A DNA stretch of 41,730 nucleotides from Jimgerdemannia flammicorona (lineage: Eukaryota), in assembly GCA_003990765.1 (NCBI GenBank), contig RBNJ01000099.1, positions 1 to 41,730 of the forward strand, written 5' to 3'. Positions 2,481 through 37,560 of the stretch are shown here, piece by piece. The stretch's first letter is position 1. Every line of letters starts with the position of its first letter. Both the position numbers and the translations under genes were made by a program. The notes beneath the pieces were generated by a model that made no database searches, had not been told where the DNA came from, and saw only the letters and a list, made by a program, of their open reading frames with translations.

Positions 2481-2975
2481 AAAACATCCTTGCCCCCTCC
2501 GGGGTCTCGCGCTCGCTCCGGGGTCTCGGCCTTACTCTGCTCCCCTCCGCTGCCTTCAGCCCCTCGCTTCGCTCGGGCTCGCTGCGGCTCGCTCCGTTTC
2601 GGCCTCACTCCTCGCTCACGCTCACCCCTCTGGGGTCTGCGGATGTTTTTTAATCTCGATTTGGATTTGTTTTGTTTGTATTTGTTTGTGATTTTTATCC
2701 TGCAACTGGGATTGGCTCCCCCTTTATCTCCGCTTATCTCCGGCGGTCATGTGGTTCCTAATTCGGTTCGCCCTGAGTTGTGGCATGTCCTCCCTTTTGG
2801 GACGTCATATTTTGTATATAAGGACCGCGTTTTTACGTGGCAATAAACAGCTGATGCATTTTCGGTTACGTTCTTTGTTCATCCCCCTTATACATGCTCT
2901 TCCACATGTCTTCCGTTTGCTTTGACACTGGCTCTGGGTTCGCTCCCTTGGCTCCCACTGGGCCTTCTTCCTCCT

Positions 2976-3140
2976 CTGAACCACTTAATCTAAATTACTC
3001 AATCTGAATTACTCAATCCAAACTACTTAATCTGAACTACTCAATCTGAATTACTCAATCCAAATTACTCAATCTGAATCATTTAATCTAAATTATCTAA
3101 TTCAAATTATCTAATTCAAATTCTTCAATCTGAATTCTAT
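2976..3140. repeat. Degenerate 14-bp tandem repeat (TCYRAAYTAYTYAA), possibly DNA-transposon subterminal repeats
   Basis: About 11 imperfect units such as tctgaattactcaa and tccaaactacttaa. Confidence 0.75.
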
Positions 3141-3159
3141 CTAAATCCTCTATATGACT

Positions 3160-4756: not shown

Positions 4757-7181
4757 TATAAGTATACAATCTTCAAGTTACTAAAATCATATACATATCA
4801 CTCTCTGAATAAATCTGGAAATTACATGTAAGATTACAAAACTAAGTCAAACCAAAGTTATAGAGCACAAAGCTGAGTTAACTCAAAGTCATAGAATATA
4901 AGATTTACATAAATGGAATCTTACTAATCAGAACCAAATGCATATATACCAAGTACTCAGATACATCAAAACAGAGAACTACAACAAACTAAATAAATAA
5001 CTATAACTCTTAAATATATATATAACTATGACTACTGAAATCTACAATTATATCTATGCTGACATTTAGAATATTATTATCAATCAAGTTATATCTCTCC
5101 TACCTCTCATAAATATCCATAGCCTAGTATTTTTCTACTTTATAGAAGTCTGATAGAATGCTCTGAACATGCTCAGCAAAGTCTATTAAATTGGACAAAT
5201 CTCAAGCTACTACCAGATTGGTTACCTCCTGGAAGATATAGTCAAACACCACTATGATACAGATATTACCCAGATGTATCAATATCAGAAGCTCATCATC
5301 CACAAATACTGAGAACTCTTTTATAAGTATAGCACTTTTATTCCTTACCTCTGAGTTACTACTGCCAAAATGATTGCAACTCTGTCTTATAGCCAAATCG
5401 ATAATATAATATAAGAACTCAACCATAAGTATATTTAGTATATATAAACTATAGACAAAACCTTCTTACACTCTGACAACCACATCCTGCAAATACTCTA
5501 AGTTAGATATACTATGAAAGATATCTATAATATAATCTGGTTTGATGATGATGAAGTAGAAGATAATGATCTCTCTAATACTGATATGACCTTGAGTCAA
5601 AGATCTTTACCAACTTTGATCACTCTGTCAATTTTGTTGATAAACTTACAACAGTTCATAATCACCTATAAGATCTATTAGAATAGTGACCACTAGCACA
5701 AATATCAACCTGTATTTATCTCTAACTATTTCAACTATAATAAAGAGACTGGAAATCTATACCTCTAGATAACTCTTGAGATCAAACCAACAACTTTACT
5801 ACCCAAGTATGAGTAATATAAAGAATAGCCACTAGCTTACTATAATTTAGCAACCCATAGTACTGTTACCTATAAAGATATATAGATAGTAAATCTGATG
5901 AAAGTAAAGATGATATATCTCTCCTTTGTCCAACTAACTCTATATTGTAATGTAGCAGACACTAAGGTGGGCAAGTATGTCAGATTTCTTTATCTTGAAT
6001 TCTTGTCTTCTTGACTCCTAGAGTCAGTAGTTCCTTGAGGCCAAATGTGTTTTTAAAGAGGTAATCCTGAAGGTCCTTTTATTGATATACTTGTTCTTTT
6101 TCTAACACTTTCAATCTGAGATTTATTCACTCAAAGATACTGGGTTATTTATACAAGTTTACTAGCTATGAGATGGCTACTGATTTACGTGACTAAGTTA
6201 TGAGTCATTTAGACAATGTCTAGAAATTTAGACAATGTTGAAATGCTATACTAAATCGGGATATTCGATTTGGACAATATCTAGAAATTTAGACAATGTC
6301 TAAATTGGCGACTGCTAACTATAAGGCTATACTACTTTGGGAATGGGTGTGATCAAGTGTCCATTCCCTATTTCCTTCTTCCTAATTTGGCTATACCATC
6401 ACAATATCTAGTATATAAGACAGATGATATTATCCTGTAGAATAGTGATATGGTCCCAATATATTATTATCTGAGTAAACAGAGAGAAGTAATCCAAAAA
6501 CTACTCTTTCTAGATGACTACTTCATTAGAGATGATATTATCAATGGTAATATTATTGAAGACTACCCAGATAGTATCTAAATCTATAGATAGCTTAGTA
6601 GTTATTAGTATAGTTAGATTAGCCTTATATGATATAACTGCATACTAACTCAGTAAGGTACTAAGTTATTTAGTATAGTTCAGATAGTCTCTTATTAGTA
6701 TAAATATCTTCTTTCTCAGACCTCAGAATCTCAGACTTGAACAAATCCAAACATAAGAATCTCTGAACACTTTCTCTTAATATTTCTTTACAAACTACTC
6801 TTAGTATTATAAATAGCAAATAAACCTATTTAATAATCTATAAACTACTCTTAAGTAAATCTGAGTCCTATTAGATCTCATTCCTAACCATATTATGAAA
6901 TTTCCTAATTGAGTATTGTCTGCAGCAATATGCCAATTCAACTAAGCTGGTCTTAGTTTCTTGAACTTTCTGAAATATAGAAAATCCTGAATATCTAGAA
7001 CAAGTTCAAAAATGGACTTTGGTTGAGATGTCAACTCAATCTTAAAATTAATAAGTATAGAGAATATACTCTATATGAAATTAATATTGATCTAAAGAAA
7101 ACAGTCTTCTGGAATATCTAGAACTTTAAGAAAACTCTTTCAGAACTATGTAACAGTACTTTTATAAGTAACTCTCTTACA
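4757..7181 (+). mobile_element. Solo LTR of family A (about 2 kb plus a nested insertion)
   Basis: Colinear with the LTR at 35539-37555; termini TATAAG (from TGTAAG)...CTTACA; perfect 5-bp TSD GTAAG at 4752-4756 and 7182-7186. Confidence 0.92.
5946..6403 (-). mobile_element. Solo LTR of family B nested in the family-A solo LTR
   Basis: Reverse-complement match to 11453-11906; TG...CA ends; 4-bp TSD ATAT at 5942-5945 and 6404-6407. Confidence 0.93.
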
Positions 7182-8080
7182 GTAAGGGTGATATTATCAA
7201 AGATTTTGAGTGATCTGAATTAATTCAGATCAATCTGGATTAGATCACAAGACTAATCTAAGTTGATTCAAATCTATCACATAATGAATCTGAATCAAAT
7301 CTCATTTGGATAAATTATATCCATTTGGAGAATTATTCTTAAAGATCTTTTTCCAAAGTATAATAGTAATCTGAAGAATATAGACTTAAAGACCAAAGAT
7401 AGTAATGGTTCAATTTATACTATAGTATGTATTTTTTTACATTTTGTTTGTATATTTATTTAGTAGTTTATGAACTTAACTATTTTTATTTTTATTAAAA
7501 AAAAAATGACTACACTATCAAATTATAATGTACTATTTCTATATTTATAAAGTCATTGATAAAAAGTTTGATTAAATCTTCTCTAATGTAGACCAGCTAA
7601 GATCTATAGCTCCAAAAGATCTTACTTATACTTACCAACAAGTATTACAATATTTGTAAGTCTGGAATAATTTTATTTATTTAAAGAATGACAAGGGTGA
7701 GCTCAGTAAGCCATTCTATAGCAACTATATAAAACAACTACTCTATTTCATATTATTTAAATAGAAATCTTAGTTTATGAATATATTTCAAAAAGATGAA
7801 TATATTAATTATTATATAGTTATCATTATTTATATATTTATATTTATCAGTATATACTTATTTAATATATACTTATTTCTTTATAGCTAAATTATATTGT
7901 CTGGCCTAATACCTTATCAAGAACTTTCAATAAAAGAAAGTATAAGAAAATATATATAAAATAGCTTGAAATGATCAATAAGATTCACAATCATATTGAT
8001 TTACTTGAGATTGAAAAAATAGTTAATAATCTGTACAAAAATATTGACTCAAATAAAGATGACAAGATGATCAATATCTC

Positions 8081-11452: not shown

Positions 11453-11906
11453 TGTGACAGTACAGCCAAATTTGGAAGAAGGAAATAGGGAATAGACACT
11501 TGATCGCACCAGTCCCAAAGTAGTATAGCCTTATAGTTAGCAGTCTTCGATTTCAACATTGTCTAAATTCTTAGACATTATCCAAATCGAACACCCCAAT
11601 TTAGTATAGCATTTTGACATTGTCTAAATTTCTAGACATTGTCTAAATGACTTATAACTTAGCCACGTAACTCAGTAGCCACCTCATAGCTAGCAAACTT
11701 GTATAAATAACCCAGTATCTTTGAGTGAATAAACCTCAGATCGAAAGTATTAGAAAAAGAACAAGTATACTGATAAAGGGACTTTTGGGATTACCTCTTA
11801 AACACATTTGGCCTCAAGGAACTACTGACTCTGGGAGTCAAGAAGACAAGAATTCAAGATAAAGAAATCCAATGTACTTACCCATCTTAGCATCTGCTAT
11901 GTTACA
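11453..11906 (+). repeat. 5' LTR of element B
   Basis: Direct repeat of 17687-18145; TATAAATA 11702-11709; AATAAA 11728-11733; internal 19-bp GACATTGTCTAAATTTCTA repeats. Confidence 0.97.
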
Positions 11907-11909
11907 ACT

Positions 11910-11958
11910 TGGTGTCTATTGGCTGGTGATTCAAGATGAATCCCTCACTTTCAAGCTA
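11910..11958 (+). promoter_or_regulatory. PBS-like site (TGGTGTCTATTGGCTGG) and conserved leader hairpin
   Basis: TGG 3 nt after the LTR; block conserved in C and D; GATTC-AAGAT-GAATC inverted repeat. Primer tRNA not identified. Confidence 0.7.
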
Positions 11959-12020
11959 AACAATGAACAACCACCACTATCCGAATAACCATACAAACCA
12001 AGTCCCAATACCCAGACAAG

Positions 12021-15000
12021 ATGGATATGAGACCATCAGTATTCCATAGATATACCTCAGATAAATCAATCATTACCTTCATTGACGATTTTGAGCAGTA
12101 TGCTGCTATAAGGACTCTGACAGCAGCACAGCAAGTAGCCCTCATGTCCTTCAGTCTACGAGGCCCTGCCAGAGCAGCATTCACAGCCGCAACCCATGCA
12201 GGAAATGATGCTGATGCCATACTGACAGCACAGAAGACCTGGCTCTGAAATACATATTATATAGACAAGATCAAGCAAGCCCTGAAGGATCAGCTCAAAA
12301 TAATATGCCAAGGAATGAGTGAGGATCCAAACACATTCTATACCAGAATTTGATATCAGATAATCCTTGCAGATTATGCTGCTGCTATCTGAGATCAAGT
12401 AGCCAAAGCAACCTTCATGAAAGGAGTCTATCCAGAAATAGCCATGGCCATCCGCTCATCACCAGTAATTCTGGATCTGCCACAGAAGGTCACCTATGCT
12501 CAGCGATACTGGATAGCCAGACACCCACAAGACCATACAATGGAGAGAGTTACAGGAGTCAGAATTGAGGCACCCAAGGCAATCAGTATGATCCCCACCA
12601 CAATGATCAATTGAAACACACCTCAGCCAAAAGCTACAGAGCAGCAAAAGAACAGTGACCCTATGGAGGAACTCACCAAAAGGTTTGCTGAAATGACTGC
12701 CCACCTGGGAGATGTGGTAAAGGAAATCCAAGGAAGAGATTGTCACCCTGTTCAGAAGTTTGCCGCTACCTCAGACAAGAAGAAAGGTACCTGCTACAGC
12801 TGTAGAGAAGAAGGCCACTACTCCTATAAATGTATGAGTGAAACCAAATGCAAGGCTCAACCAAGCAATACCACACGAAATAAGGAGCAGGCCAATATAA
12901 TCACTTTTGAAGAAATTGGAGAATCTGATGAAGAGGAATGGGAGGCCTATCCTGCTCAGACCACCAAGAAGGATGCTCACAAAGAACCCTACAAAAGACC
13001 GCCAGGAAGACCCAAGAAGAACCCAGTGGAAAAGCAGATGGAAACTGATACAGAAAGCCAAGCTGAAGAGATGGACCAAGATATCAAGCTGGAGCAAGCA
13101 GTTCAAGATATCATCCAAGGAACCACTCTAGCCAGTGAAGGAGAAAAAGAAAAGAAGCTTCGTAAGACCAAGACCTTTAAGTATGATATCTTCAAGGATC
13201 TCAGTCAACAAAAGGTCAATGCAACCTTTGATCAGCTTACAGAAATCCCAACATTCAGACAGCAAATGAGGTTTGGACTTGCCAAAACAACCAAGGAATA
13301 AGGATGGAAGATAACTGAGGCCAATAATATTCAAGAGGACTCAGGAGAAGAAAGTGAGAACAATCACAAAACCTCTGCTTATGTAATATGCCAAATTGAA
13401 GATAGAACCTTTGAAGCTATCATTGATATGTGAGCAGAAAGATGTCTCCTCAGTAAGAAGGCAGCAGACTGCCTAGGTTGAGATGTGGAAGAAGCAACTA
13501 AGCTAGTATTCATCACAGCCGATAGCACAAGAGCTACACCTCTGGGAAAGATCCGAGATGTTCCCATCAAGATCGGAGGAGCAATAATCCCAGTAGATGT
13601 AATCATAACCAATGCCACCAACTATGACATCCTCATTGGCAATCAATGACTTCACAAAGCCAAGGCGGTAATTGATCTCAATGCTCAGAAGATGCAAATC
13701 ACCTATCGGGGACAGAAGATACGAATTCCCATCAATGTCAACAAAGGAGTCCTGTCTGATATAGAGGAAGAAGAGAGTGAGCAAGAGGAAGCTTACATGG
13801 TAACTACTCCAAAGAAGAAGAAAGTTGGATGGATGAGTGAAGAAGAATGGTGCAAGAAGATCACAGAAGGTTATGCCCCACAAGGAGTCTGTCCTCATGG
13901 AATCAAGATATACTATATGGAGCATGTTAACAATTGCTACCAGTGCACCATTGGAACCAAGAAGATCTATCAGGAAAGAAGGCAGAAAGCTCTCGAAAAA
14001 CAGATCAGAGAAGAAGAGAAGAAGGAAGATGACGAACCACCAGTCCTCCTGGAGGACAGTGATGATGAAGAAGAAATCAAGGTCAAGATTCGAAAGATCC
14101 ACCCTAATGCAGTCTTGCTAGAATATAAGTCAGAAAACGCAGCCAGAATAGACATCGCTACAGTAGAAGAAACTGTACTGGAACCCCAGACAACCACCCT
14201 ACTCACAACTGGACTGGAGATGATCATCCCAAAGGATCATGTCAGGATTCTCAAGACAAGAAGTAGCCTGGCTAGAAGCGAAATCACAATTGAAGGAGGA
14301 GTTATTGATTCAGACTCTACTGGAGAAATTCTACTCATTGCTAGGAACCACAATCCTACAATTCCATTCCCAGTCAAGAAGAAGGACCGATTGGCACAGA
14401 TGTTGATCTTCCCAATCATACAGCCAAGGATCATAGAAGTCAAGAATCTGGAGAAAATGAAAAGAGGAAAGAAAGGATTCGGATCCATAGGAAGAGGAGT
14501 ATTCGCCAGCACCAAGATCACCGAACTTGAGCATAAGAAGGAGGAAAACATGAGCAAGTATAGTTATACTATTGGAGATGAATTCCCACTCAAGGAGGAA
14601 CTCAAGAAAATACTCCACAAATTCAAGGATGTCCTTGCCATGGATTTCAAGGATATCAAGGGAAAGACCCCACACTACTATCACGAGGTAGATACTGGAG
14701 ACACCGAACCAATTTACCAGAAGGTAATATCTGTCCCACCAGCCTACTGAGAATGGCTCAGAGAAGAAATCAAGCAGATGGAAGAAGCCAGCATCATCAA
14801 AGAAGCCAGCAGCCCCTGGTCTTCACTAGTTGTACTAGCCCCAAAAAAAGGAAGCAAATCTGGAGAATTTGCCCCAAGGCTCTGTGTTAACTATAGAAAG
14901 CTCAATGTAGTTACTAAGAAGGATCGCCAACCACTGCCGCTTATCAGTGACATCCTTATAACACTGGGAGATGAAGCAGAGTACTACAGCACCCTGGACT

Positions 15001-16013
15001 TATACTCAGGATTTCACCAAATCGGACTCACAGAGATGACAAGTGAAAAGTCAGCCTTCATCACCCCAGACAGAACCTACATCTACCTATGAATGCCATT
15101 CAGAATGTGCAATGCACCAGTAAGCTTTCAGCGAATGATGAACAAAATCTTCCACTATGACATGGGAAGATGGATGATAGTCTATATCGATGATATAATC
15201 ATCTACAGCAAGATACCTGAGGAACATCTGCAGCACATACAGTAGATAATGGAGAGACTAAGACAACATGGCCTTTATATTAAACCCAAGAAGTGCATGT
15301 TTGCAGAAATTGAGATCTCCTATCTTGGCCATATTATCAATCAAGATGGAACATACATGGACCCCCTCAAAATACAAGCAGTAGCAGCATACCCAAGGCC
15401 CACTACTGTCACAGAAGCCCAAGCCTTCATGGGACTCACCTCCTACTATCGCAGATTCATTAGAGGATTCTCCAACATCACAGGTCCAATCTATGAACTC
15501 AACAAGAAGGATATCAAGTTCCAGTAGACTGGCAGACAACAAAAAGCATTTGACGAACTCAAGATCAGACTAACTCAGGCACCCATCCTCAGATGACCCA
15601 ATTGGACCCAAGAATTTATCCTTTAGACAGATGCAAGTATACAGGGACTAGAAGCAGTCCTAGCTCAAAAAGAAGACAAAAAAGAGTATGTCATTGCATA
15701 TCTTAGCCGCGGAACCTGAGGGGCTGAAAAAGAATATGAGTCCTACAAGTTGGAATGCCTTGCAGTCATCTGGGCTGTGGAAAAGTTCCACTACTATCTG
15801 GCTGGAAGACACTCCACCATCCAGACAGACCACTCAGCTCTCATCTGGCTACTGACAACTAGACAACCCAAGGGAATCTATGCCAGATGGATAATGAAGT
15901 TACAAGCCTATGATGTAACCATTGTACACTGCCCTGGAAGAACAAATTCCAATGCAGATGCTCTCTCATAGACACCTTGAACTACCTCCAACCAACAAAT
16001 CAATCATGAATAA
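12021..16013 (+). pseudogene. gag-protease-dUTPase-RT-RNase H polyprotein in a single frame with many nonsense mutations
   Basis: ORF pieces at 12021, 12417, 12663, 13692, 14778, 15249 and 15750 are all in one frame. CYSCREEGHYSYKC knuckle, AIID protease site, dUTPase motifs RSSLA/GGVIDSD/RLAQML/RGKKGFGS, RT LDLYSGFHQI and YIDD, RNase H TDAS...TDH...NADALS. Confidence 0.95.
14076..14495 (+). other. dUTPase domain within pol, between protease and RT
   Basis: All five trimeric dUTPase motifs are recognisable (A.IDI, RSS, GVIDSD, RLAQ, RG..GFGS). Confidence 0.93.
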
Positions 16014-17198
16014 GGAGCTCTACTACAGAATTATCACATACCTGGGACAGCAAAAGATGCCCCAACATCTGGAAGAATGGACACAAATGATTATCAACAG
16101 AACATGGAAACAATTCGAAACTGATAGAGAAACACTGAAGAAAGGAAAACTACTGGTCATACCAGAACACAAGAAGGAGCAAGCGATGAAATCAGTATAC
16201 AAACTTGGCCATCTAGGAGGAACGAATACATATAACAAGGCAAGAAGAACAATATGGTGGCCAGGGATGGAGGAAGATATCAGACAATTTGTCAAGACAT
16301 GCAATAAATGCCAGAAACAGAAATAAGACCAATGGAATCAGGCTCCAGGATCAGCATACATAGAACCAGTACCATTTGCCCATATAGCAATAGATATAAT
16401 CGGCCCTCTACCCTTGATCCTGAGTGGTAACTGATATATCATTGTTATCATAGACCTTTTTATGAAGTGGATAGAAGCAGGACCCCTCAAGGAAGCCAAT
16501 GTACAGTCAATCACTGATTTCTTCCACAAGGAAATCATCTGCCAGTTCAAGACCCCAACACAAGTAACTACAGATAGAGGAACAGAATTTGTGAACCAGC
16601 TCTTTGAGGTTCTCTACAAGAAGTACAAGATCCAGCACATTCGGACCACAGCCTATCACCCCAAGGAAATGGACAAGTAGAAAGGACCAACAAAACCCTC
16701 AAGAATGTCATTGCCAAGATCTGTGATAACTACGAGAACTGGGATCACTATCTGCCAATAGCATTATCTGCTCTCCGGGATATCTGATCACAAAGCACCC
16801 ACTTTACCCCTTGAGAAATACTGTTTGAAGAAGAATATCCTCAAGGAACTCTATCATCCAATGGAGATGCTGTATGGAAACATGTGGACATGGAAATACA
16901 GAGACTATACCAAATCAGGAAGAAGGCTGAGGATTACATAACCAAGGTGCAGGCACTACAATAGAGGAATGCAGAAAAAACCCATAAGCCCTTAGAGATT
17001 ATCAAGATAGGAGACAAGGTCCTAGTGTATTGGAATATGGTAGAAGCTTCATGGTCACGAAAACTGGAGCCTAAGTAGAAAGGACCTTACCTTGTGCAAG
17101 ATATAAAAGGGACCACCTTTTGGCTATGAAAACCCTCAGGCACAATAATCCCCACCACCATTCACCGAAACTGACTCAAGAAATATCATAGTCAGTAA
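16006..17198 (+). pseudogene. Integrase, encoded as a separate ORF in the +1 frame
   Basis: MNKELYYRIITYL..., GHLG...WWPGM...CNKCQ, IAIDIIGPL, TDRGTEF, VERTN, GPY motif. No chromodomain. 1-bp deletion near 16660. Confidence 0.92.
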
Positions 17199-17211
17199 CA
17201 AAAGTACTGCG

Positions 17212-17649
17212 ATGGCACTCAAGATCACTAGTACTACCCAAAGAGCCATCAAAAGACAATGGCACACCACTGAGCCTCTGACCATAGAGGTATACTATGA
17301 GGATATTCAAAGTATCATACAGACTCATCTCTCTTGGATCTCGTACTTTAGAGTCTATCAATATCGGGCAGAATTCCAAGAGTACTTCAAGCTTAGGCAG
17401 GTGCTCAATCAGGATCCAGCAAAGACCAAGGAGGACTGGATTGCCAAGTGTTAACTCTCCCACTCACAGATCACTATTGCTAAAAGGATCCACAAGTTAT
17501 TCTGAGAAGATGAACTAGCAATAGACCACCTGAGAGGAGTAACCCCCACTGACTTTGAGAAAGTGAGGAGACATCATTGGGAAACAGTCATACAGCAAAT
17601 TGCACAGTATAAGACCATACAGATGGTTGAAGCCTGGGAGTTTGAATAG
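17212..17649 (+). pseudogene. 3' accessory ORF (~145 aa), unknown function
   Basis: ATG 13 nt after the IN stop; two internal stops, one of which is CAG in copy C; also present in C. Confidence 0.7.
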
Positions 17650-17675
17650 ATGCCCCAAGGATGAGACCATCTATT

Positions 17676-17685
17676 CAGGAGGAAG
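17676..17685 (+). other. Polypurine tract
   Basis: CAGGAGGAAG just before the 3' LTR. Confidence 0.85.
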
Positions 17686-17686
17686 T

Positions 17687-18145
17687 TGTGACAGTACAGC
17701 CAAATTTGGAAGAAGGAAATAGAGAATAGACACTTGATCGCACCCAGTCCCAAAGTAGTATAGCCTTATATATAGTTAGCAGTCTTCGATTTCGACATTG
17801 TCTAAATTCTTAGACATTATCCAAATTGAACACTCCGATTTAGTATAGCATTTCAATATTGTCTAAATTTCTAGACATTGTCTAAATGACTTATAACTTA
17901 GCTGCATAACTCAGTAGCCACCTCATAGCTAGCAAACTTGTATAAATAACCCAGTATCTTTGAGTGAATAAACCTTAGATCGAAAGTATTAGAAAAAGAA
18001 CAAGTATACCGATAAAGGGACTTTCGGGATTATCTCTTAAACACATTTGGCCTTAAGGAACTACTGACTCTGGAAGTCAAGAAGACAAGAATTCAAGATA
18101 AAGAAATCTGATGTACTTGCCCATCTTAGCGTCTGCTATATTACA
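17687..18145 (+). repeat. 3' LTR of element B
   Basis: Direct repeat of the 5' LTR. Confidence 0.97.
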
Positions 18146-20378
18146 GTATGTAAGTCAATAGACTTAGTAATCTTACTCAATTTTGAAGAGAAGGCAAACT
18201 TGGGCAAAAAGTATTTACTTAATCTTGTCTTATATATCTTAAACTACTTATCTGTGAGATCATACAATACTACTCAGTCATATCATAGACTCTCATAAAA
18301 CTGTTACTTATAGCAAACAAGTTGGCAAAATATAGCTAAATCTAATTTTGTATCCACAAATAGATTATAAACTCTAATTGATAAAGTGATAAAGATTTAA
18401 TCTATAGAGATTAAGGAGATATTAGAAATATTACCAAAAAAGTTTACAGGCTAGCTTATATAAATAACTTACTGTTAGATTTGAAAGTTTGAAAAGATTT
18501 TTCATATTCACTTAATGATGATATTCATTTCTAGATACAAACTAGAGATTATGAAAAAATGTTTGAGTGATAAGTTTGAGATCATATAGCTTAAATAATT
18601 TTGAAACTTCAGTGTACCTTTAAAGATACTAGTACTCAGGTACCAGTATTTCTCAGTTATTAGTGAGCTTGAGATGTCTATGAACTTACTGGTTATAATA
18701 TGATCAAGCTTGTCCTTAAGTACTGTTTGGTACTCTACAAACTTGATAACTTGGAGAAGAGAATTATGTTTATTTATTTATCAATATGGTATCTTAACTT
18801 CTATATAATATTGATGTTTAGTTATCTCTGTATCAGTATTATCTGATATATCAAATGTTCAAGTTGATTTAGAAATATGCTATAGAGTATAGAGTTTTTC
18901 AAGGTTTAGTAAACTTGGTGAGATCTCTGCAACTATTCTTTTAGTTTATTGAATTGAGATAATAGTATATCTTGATCTATAAGTATTTTTTCAGTCTAGA
19001 CTAGTGATGAGATATAGAAGTACCACTTAATAAATATTGTGAGATATTTGATAATATTAAGTAATTTGAAAATCCCTCTCATATATAGAAGGAATATCTT
19101 TTAAATTCTTTTTTTTTTTTAGTTAAATAGTTCACAAACTTACTATAATATATATAATACTTATATATATCAGTTATTGATATTCAGCTATAGTTATTTG
19201 ACTAAGATTTGAAATTCTAATAGAGAATTTTTTGAGCTCAAGATATTAAGAAACAGGTTAAATATAGAGATCTAGCTCTAGTATAAGTAGGTTTGTCAAA
19301 TATGTATCAAATAAACTTTTAATAAGATTAAGAGTTAGATTAACCAGGTATTCTCAGATATATTTTTTCACTTGATGAAATATATTAGATATAATTATTA
19401 AATAAATATTTGTAAGAGGTAGTTTCCATAATATATTCTGGAGTTTAGTTAATAGATAATATAATTATTAGTAAAAAATATTTATTCAAAAACAAGCAAA
19501 ATTAATATATATAGTTAGTCTCCACAATCTACACTCTTGAAGGCTCTTCTCAGCTATTTTATATTTGCCTTTCAAATTGTAAATCTGTGTATTTACAATA
19601 GCTCTCTATATTTCAGGAACTATTTATAGAGGATATATTTTATCAAGATATAAAAATTGCAAGTAAGAGGTCATATATTTTAAGCAGGCTTGATTTATAT
19701 AAATTAGGCAGATTAAACATGCCTTTGGATAATTGACTATAAAGAACATAACTACTAGATAGTAATTATAAATTTTGCTATCTGATTTATATATAATGAT
19801 ACTACTATAAAATATATTTATGATCAACTATCAAATAATAAATTTTTTATTTAAACAATTTTATAATTACAAATATTATCTTTTTCTTACTATTGTAATA
19901 TAGCAGATACTTAATCTTAGAAGTATGTCAGATTTTTGTATCTTGAAAACTTGATCTTCTTTGACTCTATAGAGTCCTCAGAATATAGAGGTGGGTGAGT
20001 TTGAAGTATATCTGCCTGCAGACTTACTAGTTCCTTTGCTTTCTCTTTGCTTTGAACTATTTCAACCTGAGGTTTATTTACTCTAAGATACTGGGTTATT
20101 TATATAAGTTTGCTAGCTATAAGGTAGGTGGCTAAGTTATGAGTTATTTCAAAAGTGTCAAAATATTTTGATATTGTCAAAATACTATACTATATTAGGT
20201 CTTTGATTTCAAATCTTTCAAAATATTTAGAAATTGTTGAAATCAGAGACTGCTAACTATAAGACTATGCTAATTTAGAACTAATAGTGATTAAGTATCT
20301 ATTCTCTATTTCCTTTTTCCAAATTTGGTTCTACTATTACAACTTTCTCCTAAATAGATAGTCTCATCCCTAAAACAT

Positions 20379-20817
20379 CTATTCAAATTCTCAGACCATA
20401 ATAGTCTATATGGTCTTGTACTATATAATCTGTTGTATTACTGTCTCTCAATGGTATCACCTTACTAGCTTGAAATCAGTGGGAGTTATTCATCATAAGT
20501 AGGCTAGTACTGGTTCATTATCTCAGAATAACTTATAAATTCTTTTAGCAATAGTGATTTATGAATAGAAGAGCTGACACTCTGTGATCTAATTATCCTT
20601 GGTCATTTCTGGGCTCTTATTAAGTATCTGTTCAAGTTTGAAGTACTCTTGGAACTCTGTCCAATAGTGGTAGACCTTAAAGTGTAAAATTTTGAGAGAG
20701 ATGAGTCTATATGATACTTTGGATACTATCATAAGATTCTTCTATAGTTGGAGGTTCTGTGGTATACTATTGTCTCTCAATGGCTCTTTGAGTAGTACTA
20801 GTGATCTTGAATACTAT
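20379..20817 (-). pseudogene. Accessory ORF of element C
   Basis: Colinear with 17212-17649 (ITIAKRIYKLF...ITPTDFK). Confidence 0.7.
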
Positions 20818-20830
20818 TGCTGTGCTTCAG

Positions 20831-22016
20831 TTATTGGCCATAGTTCTTCTTGAGTCAGTTTTGATGAATAGTAGTTTGTGCCTGAGAGTTTTCATAGCCA
20901 AAATGTGGTCTCTTTTATATATTGCACAAGGTAAGGTCCTTCTCACTTAGGCTCCAGTTTTTATGACCATAAAGCTTCTACTATATTCCAATATATCAGA
21001 ATCTTATCTCCTATCTTAATAATCTCCAGAGGCTTATAAATCTTTTCTGCATTATTCTGCTATAGTGCCTGCACCTTGGTTATATAATCCTTAGCCTTCT
21101 TCCTGATTTGGTATAATCTCTGTATTTCTCCATCTACATATTTCTATATAGCATCTCTATTAAACAATAGGGTTTTTTGAGAACTTTCTTTTCTGAACAG
21201 CATTTCCCAAAAAGTGAAATGAGTGCTTTGTGATTAAATATCCCAGAGAGTAGATAATGCTATTAGTAGATAGTGATCCCAGTTTTCATAGTTATTACAG
21301 ATCTTGGTAATAACATTCTTGAGGGTCTTGTTGGTTCTTTCTGTTTATCTATTTTCTTGAGAATGGTATACTATAGTCTGAATATACTGGATCTTGTACT
21401 TCTTGTAGAGAACCTCAAAGAACTAGTTCATGAATTCTGTTTCTCTGTCTATGGTTACTTGTATTGAGGTCTTGAACTGGCAGATAATTTCTTTATGAAA
21501 GAAATTAGCAATTGACTGTGCATTGACTTCCTTGAAGGATTCTGCCTCTATCTATTTCATGAAAAGGTCTATGATGATAATAATATATTGGTTGTCAGTC
21601 AAGGTCAAGAGTAGAGGGTCAATCACATCCATTACAATATAGACAAATGGTACTAGTTCTATATATGCTGATCTTGGGGCTTAATTTCATTAATCTTGTT
21701 TCTATTTCTAATATTTATTGCAGATCTTGACAAATTGTCTGATATCTTTCTTTATTTCTGACTACTATATTGTTCTTCTTGCTTTATTATATATGTTTAT
21801 TCCTTCTAGATAGCCAAGTTCATATATTGATTTCATTACTTACTCTTTCTTGTGTTCTGATATGACTAGTAGTTTTTCTTTCTTTAGTATTTCTCTATCA
21901 GTTTCAAATTGTTTCTATGTTCTGTTGATAATCATTTGTGTCTATTCTTCCAGATGTTGGGGAATTCTTCACTGTTCCAGATAGGTAATAATTCCATAGT
22001 AGAGCTTCTTATTTAT
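20831..22016 (-). pseudogene. Integrase of element C
   Basis: Colinear with the B integrase; start codon decayed to ATA. Confidence 0.85.
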
Positions 22017-25000
22017 GATTGATTTGCTAGTTGGGAGTCCTTTAGAGTATCTATGAGAGAGCATTTACATTGACATTGGTTCTTCCTGAGCAGTACTTAA
22101 TAGTTATGTCATATGCTTACAACTTCATAATCTATCTGATATAGATTCCTTTAAATTGCCCAGTGGTCAGTAACTAAGTAAGAGCTAAGTAGTCTATCTG
22201 AATAGTGAAGTATCTTTTAGTAAGATAGTAGTAGAACTTCTCTACAGCCCAGATGACTGCAAGACATTCCAACTTATAAGATTCATATTCTTTTTTAGCT
22301 CTTTGGGTTCCTTGGCTTAGATATATAATGACATACTTCACTTTATCTTTCTTTTGAGCTAAGACTATTCTTAGTTCTTGAGTACTTATATCTATCTGCA
22401 GAATGAATTCTTGAGTCCAATTAGGTCTTCTGAGGATGGGTGTCTGGGTCAGTCTGACCTTAAGCTCATCAAATACTTTTTGTTGCCTACCAGTCTATTG
22501 GAACTTAGTATTCTTCTTATTGAGTTTGTAGATTGAACCTATAATGTTAGAGAATCCTCTGATAAATCTTTGGTAATATGAGGCAAGTTCCATAAAGACT
22601 TGGGCTTTAGTAACAGTAATAGACCTTAGATATGCTATTACTGCTTATATCTTGAGAGGATCAGTGTATATTCTATCTCAATTAATGATGTGTCCAAAAT
22701 AAGAGATCTCAATTTCTATAAATTTACATTTCTTGGGCTTAATATATAGGTCATGCTTTCTCAGCTTTTCTATTATCTGCTAGATGTACTGTAGATATTC
22801 CTCTGATATCTGGCTGTAGATAATTATATTATCTATATAAACTATTATTTATCTTTCTATATTATAGTAGAAGATTTTGTTCATCATTCACTGGAAACTT
22901 ACTAGTACATTGCATATTCTAAATAACATTTGCAGATAGATATAGATTCTATCTGGGGTGATGAAGGCTGATTTCTCACTTGCTGTTTCTGTGAGTTTGA
23001 TTTGGTGAAATCCTAAATATAGATCCAAAGTACTATAGTACTATACTTTATCTTCCAGAGTTATAAGAATATCACTGATAAGAGACAGTAGTTGTCAATC
23101 CTTCTTGGTGACTACATTGAGCTTTCTGTAATCAATACAGAGTCTTGGGATAAATTCTCCAGACTTGTTTCTTTTTTTTGGAGCTAGTATAACTAGTAAA
23201 GACTAGGGGCTATTGGCCTCCTTAATGATACTAGCTTCTTCCATCTGCTTGATTTCTTCTCTGAGCTACTCTCAGTAGGCTGACAGGACAGATCTTACCT
23301 TCTGGTAAATTGGTTTGGTATCTCCAGTATCTACATTATAATAATAGTATAGACTCTTTTCTTTGATATCCTTGAAGTTTGTAATAAGGACATCCTCAAA
23401 TTTATAGAGTATTTTCTTGAGCTCCATATTGAGTGGGAATTTATTTCCAATAGTATAGCTATGCTTATTTGTAGTTTTCTCCTTCTTGTACTCCAGCTTA
23501 ATAATCTTGATACTAGTGAATACTCCTCTTTCTGTAGATCTGAATTTTTTTTTTTCTCTCTCTGTTTCCTTCAGCTTCTTAACTTCTATGATCTTTAGTT
23601 GTAGGATCAGAAAGATCAGTATCTATACTGACCAGTCCTTCTTCTTAACTGGAAAAGGTATTGTAAAATTATAGTTCCTAGTAATGAGTAGGATTTCTTC
23701 AGTATAATCTGAATTGATGACTCCTCCTTCAATTATAATTTCACTCTTAGCCAGACTGCTTCTTGTCTTGAGGATCCCAACATAATCCTTTAGGATTGTC
23801 ATCTCCATGCTGATTATAAGTAGAGTAGTTATCTGAGATTCAAGTACAGTTTTCTCTACTATAGTAATATCTATTCCAGCTATATTTTCTAACTTGTATT
23901 CTGGTAGGACTATATTAAAATGAATCTTTTGAATCTTGATCTTGATTTCCTCTTCATCATTACTGTCTTTGAGAAGAGCTAGTGGTTTATCATCCTTTTC
24001 TTCTTTTATTTTCTTCTCTTCTCTTATCTGTTTCTCAAGGGCCTTCTCTCTTTTTTGATAGTAGATCCTTGATTTTGCCAGTATACTGGTAACACTCATT
24101 GATATGCTCTATACAGTATATTCAGATCCCATAGGGGCAGACTTCTTATAGTGCATATTCTTTCATAATCTTCTTATACCAGTCTTCTTCACTCATCTAT
24201 CTAATTTTCTTCTTCTTTTTCTGAGTTATTACTATATAGACTTCTTCTTGTTTACTATCTTCTTCCTCTATCTTAGGCAAGACTCCTTTGTTGATATTGA
24301 TGGAAATTTGCATCTTCTGTCTATAATAGATGATCTGTATCTTCTAAACATTCAGATCAATTACTGTCTTGACTTTATAAAGTTACTGATTACTGATGAG
24401 GATATCATAGTTGGTTGCATTGATCATGATTATATCTACTAAAATGGTTGCTCCTTCAAACTTGATGGGAATATCTCAGATCTTTCTCAGAGGTGTGACT
24501 CTTATGTATACTATCTGCTGTGATGAATACCAATTTAGTTGCCTCTTCAACTTTCCAATCTAGGTAGTCTGCTGCTTTCTTGCTGAGGAGGCATTCTCTT
24601 GCTCTTATATCAATAATAGCCTCAAAGACTTTATTCTTGATTTGACAGATTGCATAGGCAGAGATCTTACAGTTGTCTTTACTTTCTTCTCCTAAGTTCT
24701 TTTGAACATTGTTAGCCTCAGTTATCTTCCATTCTTACTCCTTGATTGTTTTGGTAAGTTCAAATCTCATTTGTTATCTGAATGTAGGGATTTCTACCAG
24801 CTGCCCAAAGGTTGCATTGATCTTTTATTAACTAAGATCCTTGAAGATATCATACTTGAAGGTCTTAGTCTTGCAAAGCTTCTTCTTCTTTTCTCTTTTA
24901 CTGACTAGAGTAGTTTCTCAGATGATATCTTGAACAGCTTGTTCTAGCTCCATATCTTGATTCATTTCTTTATATTGACTTTCTGTAGCAGTCTCTATCT

Positions 25001-26015
25001 GCTTTTCCACAGAGTTCTTCTTGAGTCTCTCTGATAGTTTCTTGTAGAGTTGTTTACAGACATCTTTCCTAATAGTCTCAGCAGAGTAGGCTTTTCATTC
25101 CTCTTCATCTGATTTCTCAATCTCCTCAAAGGTGATAATATTGACCTGTTCCTTATTTCAAGTAGTATTGCTTGGCTGTACCTTGTGCTTGATTTCACTC
25201 ATATATTTATATGAGTAGTGGTCTTTTTCTCCACAAGTGTAGCAGGTATCTCTCTTCTTATCTAAGGTAGTAGCAAATTTCTGAACTAAGCAGCAGTCTC
25301 TTTCTTTAATTTCTTTTATCACATCTTCTAGGTGGGCTATCATTTTAGCAAACTTCTTGGCAAGTTCCTCTATGGGGTCACTATTTCTCTGATATTCAAT
25401 AGCTCTTGGTTGAGGTGTATTTCAATTGATCACTATAGTAGATATCATACTGATTGTTTTGAGTGCTTCAATTCTGACTCCAGTGACTCTCTCCATTATA
25501 TAGTCTTGTAGATGTCTGACTGTTCAGTATTGCTAAGTATAGATGACCTTTTGTATCAGATCTAGGACTATTGGTGATGAGTGAATGGCCAGAGCTATCT
25601 CTGAGTAGATTTCTTTCATGAAGGTTACTTTAGCTACTTGATCTCTGATAGTGGTAGTATAATCTGCAAGAATTATCTGATATCAGATTTTGGTATAGAA
25701 TGTATTTAGATCCTCACTCATTTCTTAGTATATTATATTAAGCTAATTCTTCAGTATCTGCTTAATCTTATCTATATAGTATGTAGCTTAGAGCCAGGTC
25801 TTCTATATTGCTAGTATAGTATAATTATTATTTTCTACATAGGTTGTAGATATGAATGCTGCTCTTGCTGGTCCTTGGAGATTGAAGGGCATGAGGGTTA
25901 CTTGCTACCTTGCTATCAGACTCCTTACAGTGACATATTGTTTAAAATCATCAATAAAGATAATAATTGACTTATTTAAAGTATAACTGTAGAATACTGG
26001 TGGTCTCATATCCAT
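22009..26015 (-). pseudogene. gag-PR-dUTPase-RT-RNase H of element C
   Basis: CYTCGEKDHY knuckle remnant; dUTPase fragment in ORF 23623-24099; colinear with B. Confidence 0.9.
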
Positions 26016-28224
26016 CTTGTCTGGATATCTTAGTTCAATTTATATGGTTGTTTTAGTAGTAGCAGTTGTTTATTGTTCAGCTTGAAAGTGAGGGATTTAT
26101 TTTGAATTATCAGCTAATAGATACAAAGTTATAATATAGTGGATGCTTAACCTTAGAAGTACATCAGATTTTTGTATCTAAAAAACTTGATCTTCTTTGA
26201 CTCTATAGAGTCCTCAGAATATAGAGGTGGGTAAGTTCAAAGTATATCTGTCTATAGACTTACTAGTTCCTTTGCTTTCTCTTTGTTTTGAACTATTTCA
26301 ATCTGAGATTTATTCACTCTAAGATACTGAGTTATTTATATAAGTTTGCTAGCTATAAGGTGGGTGACTAAGTTATGAGTCATTTTGAAAGTGTTGAAAT
26401 ATTTTAATATTGTTAAAATGTTATACTATATTAGGTCTTTGATTTTGAATCTTTTAAAATATTTAGAAATTATTGAAATCAGGGACTACTAACTATAAGG
26501 CTATACTAATTTGGGACTAGTAGCAATCAAGTGTCTATTCTCTATATTCTTCTTCTAAATTTGGTTCTACTATCATACTATAGATAGTTCACAAAGTACC
26601 CATGACATATATCTATAATATAAAACTGTTTTCACTTTATAGAAAAAGTCTTTTTTGATCTCCTTGGGAGTCCCTTTAATAATTAGAAAATATGTAATTA
26701 CTGGGAATATATTTTGTAAGTATGTTTGTCAAATACATTTAGAGAGATTACTAATAGAAATATATAGTAGATATATTTTAGTATATCCAAGCAGATTACA
26801 ATATATTTAGTCAATTTCAAGTAATACCAGAATTACTATTGCACTAAGTGGGAGTTTTTTCTATAGCTTAAAAAAAGAATTATAGTCTGCAAATAGTGAG
26901 TATACTGACTAATTACCTGCAAACTTAAAATTAATTATTATTTTACCTGTGTTTGCTATCAAAAATCACTCTAATATACATATCTTAGAGTACTTTCATA
27001 TACTATCTGCCATATAGTATTTCTTTACTTTAAATTTCATATTATCCTTGAATAAAGTATTTGACATCAGCTTATATAAAATAGTAAGTAGATCTCAATA
27101 GAATAGCATATATTCACTAGTCTAAGTTTTGGATATATAAGTAATGTTAAAAACTTTATAATTGAAGAGCTAATTTAAAAAAGAGAATTACTGAATGTTC
27201 ATCAATTTAATAGGAATATTAACTGTTTAATTATATATCACTCTATTTTTAACTACTATATCTAAAAGTTTTATCATCTCTCTTAAATTTGTAAACTAGA
27301 GAGACCTATTCATTATTAAAATTCTTCTATCTATAAATATATTAAGAAGTTCATCTGCAACCTTTTGGGATATATTTCTACTTTGAAATAATAGATTTAT
27401 AAGCCAAATTTCTCAATTATTCTTCTAAAAATATATATAAAGGATTGTTTACATTAGTTGTAGATACTCATCTAAGTTTAGAAATAAATTCATTATGCAT
27501 TATAAGTGTTTTTTTGCTATTGATAATCTGACCACCAGTTGGTTTATAGATAATATGATCCTTGCCAAACTCTAATATAGTAGATGAGCTTCTCTGATCT
27601 TGAATTGAATTATCATTTTTACTAAACAATGAGTTTTTCTATTCTTAAATTGGAGATAGATCATCATTACTGATATTATCTTGAATTATATATATATACT
27701 TAGTATGATTATCTGAAATCTTTTAAGTTCATTTATATAGATTGCTTAAACTTGAAATATATATAGAATTCAAGGTTAACTTATAAACTATTGATAAATT
27801 TATAGATAATAGTAGTATAATATTAAAGTTACTAAAATCTTAACAAATTGAAAATTCAAGAATAGACTTGTCATTCTGATATTGTGTAAGTATATCATAT
27901 ATCTTTCACATATATCAAGTCAATCCTGAGGCAGATTTGTACTTTTGATTACAATATGAGCAAAAAAAACTTCATATTGATATTAGGTTTGAAGTAGAGA
28001 AGAATTTGAAGAATAATATGAATTTTGATAGTAAGTTCATAATCACAAAACATACTGATTTATATATCTGAAAGATGATAAGGATAAGCTTAGCAAGCTA
28101 TTCTATAATAACTATATAAAATAAGTACTCTATTTCATATTCTTCAAATAAAAACCTCAGTTTGCAAATATTTTTCAAAAAGATAAACATATTAACTATT
28201 ATATAGTTGCTGTTATTTATATAT

Positions 28225-29738
28225 TGTCATATAGTGGTCGCTGAGTCCTTCAAATATACCAGATTCTCTTCAAGGTATATCTCTTAGACTAACTCAAGTT
28301 TATTATAAGCAAGTTCTTATTGGAGTATCTTCTTAAGGTCTTATAGTCCTCAAACTTCTTATCTTTAACTATCTTGTTATTTCTTAGATTGCTTGCAAGA
28401 AAGTATGTATAAGTGAAACTGGAACTGACTTTATTTCAGAGGAAATAAGAGGGGTATTTATACAAAATATAATTCAATAGTTGCTAATATATAAAGTTAA
28501 ATATAAATTCTAATAACTAAAACTACTAAGTTCCAGGGTTGGCACTGATGGTTATATAGGTTCAGGATGCTGATATAATTCAGTGTCACATCAGAATACC
28601 AGTACTGGAACAATTTTGCGTCACCTCAGAATGTCAGTGCTGGCATTATCCAGTGTTACATCAAAATACCAGTGCTGACATTATTCAGTATAACAAAGAA
28701 CTTAGAGCAGAAAGTTCAGGATCATGGGGGCTTCATCCTCATCATCACTGAAGGAGATGAGATCTGTGAATTTGTCATATTTGCATGCTTTGATATCATA
28801 CAAGATAACATTATCACTGATGATATCATCATGTTTGGCAGCAGGAAGGAGGTCTGGGGCTCTCTAGTCTATAAGGTTCTCTTCTACAAAATAGGGGACA
28901 AATGTGGGGTCTTGGGAAGATCTAACCCAGATGCTTGGACCTTGAAATACTGAGATCAATCCTTGCAGGAATTGGTCTAGGTTGTCTTGGAGAATGGGGT
29001 GCCAGAAGTCTTCTACTTCATCACTATTGAGGGTGATAGTGGACTGAGCTTCTGTAGTCACTCTGGCTTCTAGTATATTGATATGGTGAGATGACAGGTC
29101 TCTGAAATCTGAGACTCTAACATACTCTAAGTTGGGGATTGACCATGGTGCATGCCTGAAGATCTGATGGATCTTCTTAGCTATCCTTGTTTCATGTATA
29201 TCCATGGGAGTGGCATCTTGTAGCTCTTGAGTGCTAGCCTGTGGGAACTCCTGGCAGAGGAGGTTTCCTATTTCATACTCCTGCCATATTTGGAGGTATT
29301 CGGTAGCAATAGTGATCCTTGTTTTCATTTTACAGTAGTAGAGGATAAAGTGATAGGGATCTGCAGTACCCAGGTTGACACTAGGAGTCCTTCTTGAGCA
29401 GGTCCTCATGGCTCTTCTGATATCTTAAAACATCCTTTCCTCAACTGAGATGCCTTGGTGATTCCTTAACCTTGAGGTTTGGTAGGCAGCAGGCATTTTG
29501 TTTGTGGTAAGTCTTTGAGCTATTTTGGGATTAGTGGTTCTTGTTGGTTGCTGCTACTGTGGTTCCTTGATCCTTCTTTTATATTCTTCAGGATGCTTAT
29601 ACTGTAGTCACAATGACTTGTAGTTGGTCATCATTGCTTATCTCATATGCCATATGATCTTCTTGTGCTCTGATCTGATAGCTTGTAAGGAAAGGCTGTC
29701 TCCTGTACTGATGTCATCATTCTGGGGTCACTGTTATA
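28225..29738 (-). repeat. 3' LTR of element D (inner boundary inferred from the PPT)
   Basis: PPT CAGGAGGAAG at 29740-29749 (-), identical to B, followed by TATAACAG (cf. TGTGACAG); TATAAATA ~28455-28462 (-); AATAAA 28430-28435 (-); ~33-bp tandem repeats 28565-28695. Confidence 0.7.
28702..29409 (-). CDS. LTR-internal accessory ORF of D, unknown function
   Basis: 181-aa ORF 28864-29409, extendable through one TAG to TAA at 28702; QEYEIGNLL...IAKKIHQIF...IPNLEYVRVSDF resembles the B accessory ORF. Confidence 0.65.
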
Positions 29739-30051
29739 TCTTCCTCCTGAATAAGGATCTTCTTGAGCATCCTTATTCATTGGTCTAGTCCTGAAAAATT
29801 TGCTGATCCTATAACCTCTGGCAAGGGGTTGAAAAGTAGTATTTATGAGCTGGTGTCTTCTCTTTGTATTTTGGCATAATGGTGAAGAGTTGCTCCCTTC
29901 ATATAGAGTAAGGGCCTGATTCTGATCTTGACCAATCAGTTGATGGTTTGAACTCCTCTGACTTTGAAAGTCTCATGGATGAGTAGTTGCCAGTACTGTA
30001 TCCCTTAGAGAATGGTCCAGACAGATAGCCTGCTGGTCATGGGACATGCTG

Positions 30052-31297
30052 TTATGATTTGTAGACTAGAACCTCATGGGTGGTTATCACATTTTGCTTC
30101 TCTTGTATAGGTTCGTGGTACTTCTTGAGTCTATTCCTATGTACTGTGGTAGGCAGTATGGTCCCTGAGATTTTTCTAAGCCAGAAGGTGGTTCTCTTGA
30201 TATCTTGTACATAGAAGGGTTCTTCCCATTTGGACTCCAGTTTTCATAACCATGAGGCTTCTACTATATTTCAATTAGTAGAATCTTTTCTCCAATTTGG
30301 ATGGGTTTTAGGGCCTTGTGATTCTTTTCCACATTCTTCCTTGTCAGCACTTGTGACTTGGTGATGTAATCTTCAGCTTTCTTTCTAATTTGATATAGTC
30401 TCCAGATTTCTGCATCAACTTATCTCTAAGTTAGGTCTAGATTTATGGCTGAGGTTCCATCAGAATCTTCTTCTCCAAAGAGCAGCTCTCTTGGGGTAAA
30501 GTGTGTACTCTATGACTGTATGTCTCATAGGACAGAGAGGGTGGTTGGGAGATAGTTATCCCAATTCTCATATGTCTTTGAGATTTTCACTAGAATGTTC
30601 TTAAGGGTCTTGTTGGTTCTCTCTGTCTGTCTATTTTCTTGAGGGTGGTACACAGTGGTCTTTATGTACTGGATCTTGTATTTCTGATACATTATCTCAT
30701 AGAATCCATTGACAAATTCCATACTGCAGTCTGTTGTGATTTGCTTTGGTGTCTTGTAGTGGCAGATGATTTCTTGGTATAGAAAGTCAGCTATAGAGAG
30801 GGCATTGGCTTCTTGTAATGCTCCTGCCTCTATCCATTTAGTGAAGAGGTCTACAATAACTAGAATATAGTGATTTCTTGATAGTGTTACTAGTAGTGGT
30901 CCAATGATATCTATTGCAATGTAGTGGAAGAGGATAGGCTCAATTCTTGATGACCCGGGTGTCTGGTCTTACTGATCTTGTTTTTATTTTTGGTACTTGT
31001 CATACCCTTTGACAAATTGGCACAGATCTTCTTCTATCTTGGGCCACTATATAGTTCTTCTTATCTTATCATATATGTTGGTTCCTCCTAAGTATCCTTG
31101 CTCATGTACTTTCTTCATTACTTGATACTTCTTGTGTTCGAGTATTACTAGCTTTCCTCCTTTTCTAAGTATAGTGTTATCTAGTTCAAACTGTTTCCAA
31201 GTCCAGTTGATGATAGTGGTTGTCCAGGGTTCAGGTGGTTAGATATCTTCTGCTGTCCAAGGTAGCTGATTAATCCATAGTATAGCTCCTTATTCAT
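30052..31297 (-). pseudogene. Integrase of element D, separate ORF
   Basis: MNKELYYGLISYL..., IAIDIIGPL, YHPQ..RTNKTL; 1-bp deletion near 31230. Confidence 0.9.
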
Positions 31298-35312: not shown

Positions 35313-35431
35313 CTTGTCTTGAATTCTTACAGGGTAACTCTTGTAGTCAGAGTAGTTGTTATGGGGGTTGTTCATTTTTCAGCTTGAAAGTGAGGGATTC
35401 ATCTTGAATCACCAGCCAATAGGCACCAAGT

Positions 35432-37555: not shown

Positions 37556-37560
37556 ACTTG

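Follow-up and report, generated by a model that had tools for sequence, protein, structure and literature searches.

Self-comparison and boundary reading resolved the window, by which we mean the whole 41,730-nt stretch of DNA analysed here, into a nest of decayed LTR retrotransposons. Element B (11453–18145, + strand) is bounded by LTRs of 454 and 459 bp that are 94% alike, and carries the 4-bp TSD GTAT. Boundary reading places its 5′ LTR at 11453–11906 (+); its 3′ LTR (17687–18145, +; 459 bp) contains no ORF, has a TATAAA at 17941 and lies directly 3′ of the polypurine tract (PPT) AGGAGGAAG at 17677–17685 (+). Element C (19893–26575, − strand; 4-bp TSD ATAG) has 78% nucleotide identity to B, and element D (28224–35538, − strand) is 67% identical to B over gag-pol. 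The 3′ LTR of D, which bears an ORF in its U3, spans 28224–29738 (−; ~1515 bp). Only ~110 bp are left of the D 5′ LTR (35431–35538, −), which was the insertion site of a family-A element and is cut by it. The 5′ LTR of that element, A2 (35539–37555, + strand), measures 2017 bp, ends in TG..CA and has a TATAAA at 37071; downstream of it come the PBS-like ACTTGGTAG (TTGGTAG) and a gag that encodes a CCHC zinc knuckle. A second family-A copy, A1 (4757–7181, +), is a solo LTR with the 5-bp TSD GTAAG and heavy C-to-T mutation; a B-like solo LTR in inverted orientation interrupts it at ~5933–6404.

A Pfam search of B in all three frames (E ≤ 0.01) yielded the pol order PR-dUTPase-RT-RNase H-IN, with the aspartic protease at residues 491–599, dUTPase at 735–860 (E = 1.9e-21), RVT_1 at 979–1144 and RT_RNaseH at 1234–1335, followed by Integrase_H2C2 and rve. 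The same search found no chromodomain after the integrase core of B. The dUTPase corresponds to 14109–14486 (+), between protease and RT, and D can be aligned with B over the same region. By this domain content B/C and D are classed as dUTPase-bearing Ty3/gypsy elements; the pol and PPT of family A lie outside the window. A dUTPase between protease and RT is a rare feature; two studies, in the passages available, report dUTPase-bearing LTR retrotransposons from fungi and from bdelloid rotifers (PMC5408684, PMC2864245).

The LTRs of A, B and D have a TATA core, GTATAAATA[AC]CCC, in common (at 37071, 17941 and 28462, respectively). The junction of LTR end and PBS start, ACA/ACTTGGT, also recurs in all three (11902–11913, 35428–35439 and 37551–37562), and the remaining LTR parts are unalignable. 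Comparison of the non-coding LTR parts, with a scoring scheme that is poor for them, found no likeness beyond the 13–17-nt TATA core and a D–B stretch after the TATA (5/500).

Several features lie outside the elements or concern other copies of them. A 167-bp direct repeat (81% identical; 7672–7838 and 28059–28225) falls outside all mapped elements, one copy ~490 bp past A1 and the other adjoining the 3′ end of D. The window ends, 1–2900 and 39656–41730, are GC-rich (52–59%) and contain long + strand ORFs, of which the ORF at 390–2480 has a weak RVT_1 match and a YIDD motif; its KVHKP..RPI motif is, we presume, Penelope-like. Directly after this GC-rich RT-like ORF, 14-bp units resembling TCTGAATTACTCAA are repeated in tandem over 2961–3142, with nine overlapping 70-nt register copies. 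Public sequencing runs with window-like sequence were limited to soil metagenomes and one coded organism, in small shares, with no RNA run among them. Contigs from public runs represent other copies; these mostly carry G/C at positions that are A/T in the window, and joints in these contigs resemble LTR-LTR or empty-site forms. One contig of run X7 joins 19892 to 26597 with 16 other letters between the two sides and element C absent, which may mean that the site is empty, or filled differently, in a related genome.

Besides gag and pol, B carries an accessory gene, ORF3, at 17188–17649 (+). It comprises ~153 codons, is interrupted by in-frame stops at 17452 and 17503, and holds the domain with which this report is concerned. 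A sequence-only reading of the locus had drawn the interval as 17212–17649. Its end is retained, but the original start was at 17188, where the codon is now ATA and where both copy C and the intact relatives begin. Pol, in a different frame, terminates at 17196–17198, 8 nt past this original start codon; the resulting pol/ORF3 overlap at 17188–17198 is compact and virus-like. ORF3 follows the integrase core (rve) and ends 27 nt before the PPT, after which comes the 3′ LTR. The copy in C (20382–20841, −) has several stops and one frameshift. As the earlier reading had it, the ORF of B/C comes after the integrase: in both elements it sits between integrase and PPT/3′ LTR. All nine peptide strings quoted in that reading occur in the window in their given frames, namely at 17377–17406, 17476–17502 and 17527–17556 (+) for B, at 29257–29283, 29158–29184 and 29104–29130 (−) for D, and at 35972–35998, 36062–36088 and 36113–36139 (+) for A.

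In D and A, the accessory ORF was said to lie inside the LTR, and both ORFs do lie wholly within it, upstream of the TATA box. The D ORF (28702–29496, −) has ~264 codons, an ATG at 29496 and stops at 29427 and 28866; its shared domain occupies ~29068–29433 and is followed by an acidic tail. Since the PPT and LTR start of D (29748–29738) align with those of B/C, the D 3′ LTR is ~1515 bp long and contains the whole ORF; its extent rests on this likeness because the D 5′ LTR is truncated. The ~300-bp spacer between IN and PPT of D holds no B-like ORF3 remnant. The A ORF (35795–36892, +) has 365 codons, with stops at 35918, 35954, 36179 and 36446, a shared domain at ~35831–36172 and again an acidic tail. 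It resides in a genuine LTR of ~2017 bp, as seen from the TG..CA ends, the PBS-like sequence and gag after A2, and the 5-bp TSD of A1. The ORF remnant of A1 starts at 5028 (+) and is split by the inverted B-like solo LTR. In both families the ATG lies ~250 nt from the 5′ end of the LTR (position 243 in D, 257 in A).

The order of signals places both LTR-borne ORFs upstream of the TATA box: PPT 29748–29740, ATG 29496 and TATAAA 28462 in D; LTR start 35539, ATG 35795 and TATAAA 37071 in A. Because the D and A ORFs end upstream of the TATA core, they are located in U3, the U3/R border being a predicted one, and a gene in U3 is copied into both LTRs. The PPT comes after the ORF in B/C and before it in D; for A, the order follows from the U3 location. 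The domain had been described as occupying different positions in the different families. This holds for the DNA, where the places differ, but not for the RNA, where the position is the same: in all families the accessory ORF is the 3′-most coding unit of the genomic RNA (gag-pol-accessory).

All three ORF types have intact relatives in public metagenomes. For B, four intact proteins were obtained from nine candidates (61–74% identical, 115–153 aa); for D, seven from 23, plus cluster members of up to 323 aa. Family A is represented by P0012, which covers the C-terminal 247 aa, and by P0022, which covers the N-terminal 128 aa and is 88% identical. Every one of these relatives is a short ORF belonging to one of the three types, on a contig of 0.5–3 kb. 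The search for further loci returned one in metagenomes, L001, and none in viral contigs or genome contigs.

Comparisons within each ORF type revealed strong constraint on the reading frame. Between the ORF3s of B and C, dN/dS is 0.21 in frame and 0.59 and 1.35 off frame (Nei-Gojobori, 131 codons, 14 skipped). D against L001 gives 0.13 in frame and 1.1 and 1.9 off frame (211 codons), with dS saturated at 2.0 and a pN/pS of 0.32, and A2 against A1 gives 0.19 in frame and 0.71 in both other frames (282 codons). For the same B–C pair, dN/dS is 0.18 in gag and 0.11–0.38 in pol. The ORFs are therefore genuine genes, and purifying selection acts on them with the same strength as on gag and pol; a ratio near 1, which would have spoken against the proposed gene, is far from the 0.13–0.21 found in frame.

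The decay of the window copies has a direction of its own. Copies of the window elements differ chiefly by C>T and G>A: from A2 to A1 there are 285 such changes and 61 in reverse, 150 of the 285 falling at CpA. CpG observed/expected ratios are 0–0.37 in the LTR elements and 0.53–0.74, much less depleted, at the GC-rich window ends, while DNA between elements has a GC content of 22–24%. This strongly directional hypermutation looks RIP-like, methylation-driven or both. The in-frame stops of the window ORFs are TAA, TAG or TGA where intact relatives hold sense codons, which fits C-to-T decay.

One pair of stops in family A is placed alike. A2 (36179–36181) and A1 (5412–5414) both have TAA at the codon just after the shared domain (...QIDDMI). 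P0022 ends at the same residue, and P0012 has a sense codon there. The shared stop could be a parallel CpA mutation, the mark of a common defective lineage, or a leaky stop that yields a B-like, domain-only protein.

Sequence comparison connects the domain across all three families. For B and D, the window copies match by BLASTP at E = 7e-5 over 34 residues, and hhalign of the family alignments yields a probability of 75–81% and E = 1.2–2.5e-5 over 102–104 columns, from shallow profiles (Neff 1.3–1.7). tblastx segment identities are inflated by off-frame HSPs and serve as a rough guide only. The three families can be aligned colinearly with MAFFT, and the alignment contains two blocks that A and D have in common and B lacks.

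For family A, the first-pass tests were weak and used window copies with stops and many C-to-T changes. These decayed copies gave a BLASTP E of 0.49 to D and no match to B, hhalign E-values of 0.017–0.2 with probabilities of 0.3–2.6%, and six-frame HMM matches at noise level. In column shuffles the result was 1/200 for the N-terminal part, and 11/150 and 4/150 for two halves. When the window A ORF was searched with phmmer against 1.84 billion representatives, B and D proteins were absent from the matches.

The intact relative P0022 scores 18.7 bits against a D-domain HMM made from 10 natural proteins, no A sequence among them (HMMER p = 7.8e-8 for one comparison; HMM 5–120, P0022 13–126). This score was reached by none of 3000 residue shuffles (maximum 11.6) and none of 2000 8-residue block shuffles (maximum 13.7), and the reversed sequence scored −0.8. 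With the same HMM, B relatives score 9.0–14.7 bits, window A2 9.0 and A1 4.0; the best unrelated stretch in the six-frame translated window scores 3.2. An HMM of B and D together gives P0022 16.3 bits (0/3000 shuffles). The direct A–B comparison, P0022 against a B-only HMM, gives 8.1 bits in the same register, a value reached by 5 of 3000 shuffles. Pairwise, phmmer scores P0022 at 22.5, 20.9 and 19.2 bits against the D2-type proteins P0014, P0016 and P0020; BLASTP finds 24.5% identity to P0014 over 110 residues (E = 1.8e-6) and E = 0.004 to the B protein P0008. Against four D1-type members (P0001, P0002, P0003 and P0013), P0022 reaches only 1.0–6.8 bits, so that the pairwise signal comes from the D2-type.

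Could the likeness of A be due to chance or to convergence among helical acidic proteins, with descent confined to the sister elements B/C and D? Such a reading would account for the noise-level scores of the window copies and the weak match of P0022 to D1-type proteins, and the choice of A by eye in the earlier reading introduces a selection effect. Against it, P0022 was not seen in that reading, and yet it attains 18.7 bits with 0/3000 and 0/2000 shuffles and matches P0014 at a BLASTP E of 1.8e-6. Moreover, its alignment runs over 114 residues and includes an N-terminal block beyond the region first picked out. Composition was controlled with the tails: a D-tail HMM scores the acidic tail of A at 0.9 bits, a value reached by 327 of 2000 shuffles, so that acidic composition alone scores nothing. 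We consider chance likeness very improbable. Judged from these alignments, homology across the three families is confined to the N-terminal ~115–130 residues; the acidic tails of D and A show no likeness. The proposal of a domain common to several LTR families, to which an absence of profile similarity would have been fatal, is thus upheld by significant profile matches among all three (B–D hhalign E = 1.2e-5; A–D HMM 18.7 bits via the intact P0022).

Regarding the nature of the protein, we found no signal peptide and no TM-like stretch in eight proteins of the three families. The maximal 19-residue Kyte-Doolittle mean in these proteins is 0.19–0.97, and there is accordingly no TM segment. Without a hydrophobic segment the protein is not env-like, which agrees with the earlier reading; nor is there a Pfam env match. 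Pfam searches of the window ORFs and six intact relatives gave only sub-threshold chance matches, leaving the ORF3 proteins without any Pfam family. Sequence profiles of the B and D families had 0 matches in the PDB at E ≤ 10. AlphaFold2 models of B (pLDDT 56.8) and D (38.5) are both helical and too poor to support a common fold. Foldseek with these low-confidence models gave 0 matches at E ≤ 0.001 against PDB and BFVD, and the best hit in VIA wide (Z = 7.0, again with low-confidence models) was to generic helical bundles, below the stated noise level. In the ESM Atlas, matches were to unnamed or unrelated clusters, and the Atlas model of P0002 has a pLDDT of 0.35.

The B protein (153 aa) consists of little more than the domain. 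Those of D and A are highly acidic, with net charges of −20 to −41, the first 60 residues being near-neutral or basic and the second halves acidic. D proteins have an Arg-rich start and end in ...DEDEAP..LNFLL, neither of which is kept in A or B. Cysteines are few (0–4).

The position of the B/C ORF, where an env would be expected, could suggest that these ORFs encode structural or entry proteins, either env-like or a second gag-like product. This is contradicted by the missing signal peptide and TM-like stretch, the hydropathy maximum of 0.97, the 0–4 cysteines, the lack of a Pfam env or gag match, and the U3 location of the D and A genes; we regard it as most improbable. In our view, the region at 17188–17649 is probably one copy of a retrotransposon accessory gene, whose product has a soluble, all-helical N-terminal domain of ~115–130 residues that is homologous in B/C, D and A.

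How the families came to hold the same domain is less clear-cut. Family A had been set apart from the others, and it is indeed distinct in its 5-bp TSD and in its gag, which can be aligned with B gag only at the zinc knuckle. The accessory domain can still be aligned, although between B and C it evolves faster than gag (dN 0.189 vs 0.146; nucleotide identity 74.7% vs 79%). This pairing of an unalignable gag with an alignable, faster-evolving domain leads us to lean towards transfer, as do the U3 location, the ATG offset and the two alignment blocks that A shares with D and that are lacking in B, the sister of D. Passage between lineages by recombination has roughly an even chance of being the right explanation. 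Retention from a common ancestor is less likely, but still a serious contender.

Alternatively, the domain might be a fragment of a host cellular gene that each family captured independently. Gene capture by LTR elements is documented, as the available parts of the plant review describe (PMC7264820). Here, the relatives are without exception short ORFs of the three known types on 0.5–3 kb contigs, and no longer cellular protein was found among relatives of near length, nor, with the A query only, among the 1.84 billion representatives. In addition, all copies have the same place and the sense orientation. Independent capture is accordingly improbable.

Being encoded at the 3′ end of the genomic RNA, the accessory protein needs a message of its own, and we propose that this would be a subgenomic one. 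In B/C, this could involve splicing or termination-reinitiation, the latter being conceivable because pol terminates 8 nt beyond the ATG. The U3 of D and A contains a TATA-like motif 65–80 nt upstream of the ATG, and an LTR AATAAA lies 3′ of the ORF, so each D or A LTR could make a monocistronic mRNA. This message would begin from the U3-internal TATA-like motif and end at the poly(A) signal of the LTR itself.

The protein itself would act in trans on the expression of its own element. Tentatively, the position of the gene, the Arg-rich N-terminus of D and the acidic tails studded with hydrophobic residues suggest a nuclear regulator, either a transactivator or an RNA-export factor. A counter-defence factor or an assembly chaperone are other live options. 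The roles in anti-silencing, nucleic-acid binding or translation that the sequence-only reading had offered may apply, but nothing favours them over a transcriptional or export regulator. More speculatively, and with a rather low probability, the D and A LTRs could be self-contained cassettes of U3 promoter, ORF and poly(A) signal, expressible even from solo LTRs, whose N-terminal domain would be traded between unrelated families and kept as a counter to host genome defence (C-to-T hypermutation, CpG loss).

Among retroviruses, accessory genes in or overlapping U3 include MMTV sag, lentiviral nef and foamy-virus bel, and their functions differ. The D/A gene is like them in being situated in U3 after the PPT (by deduction in A), duplicated in both LTRs and 3′-terminal in the genomic RNA. 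It differs in that sag, nef and bel belong to vertebrate retroviruses, and no sequence or fold match was found here, the fold models being of low confidence.

Additional ORFs are also known from LTR retrotransposons. In plants, aORF-3S are sense ORFs between pol and the 3′ LTR (Vicient & Casacuberta 2020, PMC7264820). As far as the accessible parts of that review go, B/C have the same layout, a sense ORF between pol and PPT/3′ LTR, whereas D and A differ in having the ORF inside the LTR, an arrangement of which these parts make no mention. The aORF-3S also persist in diverged copies, with a degree of conservation close to that of the other proteins of the element, comparable to the dN/dS of 0.21 against 0.18 for gag found here. 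In contrast to the proteins described here, the plant cases are, in the same account, mostly env-like with TM segments. Their origin and function are obscure, as here, and we found no sequence relation. For barley Bagy2, the review describes a spliced mRNA for the extra ORF, a possible model for B/C (PMC7264820).

A precedent for a shared gene is found in bdelloid rotifers, where, in the portions of the report at our disposal, ORF3 types common to unrelated retroelements of one genome are read as gene sharing (Rodriguez, Kenefick & Arkhipova 2017, PMC5408684). Their carriers resemble B in the dUTPase between PR and RT. The rotifer ORF3s, as described there, are a GDSL esterase, a DEDDy exonuclease or env-like, and lie outside LTRs of 159–551 bp (PMC5408684); the domain reported here matches no family and in D/A is situated within the U3 of 1.5–2 kb LTRs. 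In C. elegans, the Ty3/gypsy element Cer1 encodes CERV, according to the consulted text a non-env accessory protein that is nuclear, acts on the element RNA and is made from a spliced mRNA (PMC10309623). CERV can serve as a model for a possible role, the likeness being one of description. Novikova et al. 2010 (PMC2864245) drew fungal Gypsy elements with an 'add. ORF' of obscure function and describe fungal elements that bear a dUTPase, in some of them between PR and RT; the 'add. ORF' may be likened to ours by the figure legend. ORF0 of Retrosat2 is situated upstream of gag, not within the LTR, and phrase searches of the literature returned no report of an ORF inside the LTR of an LTR retrotransposon. 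We therefore rate the finding as a new domain family with an unusual, LTR-borne placement, within the known class of extra retrotransposon ORFs.

That LTR retrotransposons can carry extra genes is known, but most of these genes lack an explanation. What is unusual here is a domain without a Pfam, PDB-sequence or fold relative that is selected as strongly as gag and pol, occurs in families whose gag cannot be aligned, and in two of them is borne by the LTR. Each element holds two copies of an LTR-borne gene, and the gene persists in solo LTRs, which alters its expression, its spread and its potential for co-option. The arrangement resembles the one thought of for retroviral U3 genes (sag, nef). 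If trees of pol and of the domain disagree, bdelloid rotifers would be joined by a second clear example of retroelements drawing on a common gene pool, in a different and probably fungal host. Such a shared pool, if true, would also offer a handle on the roles of non-env accessory proteins.
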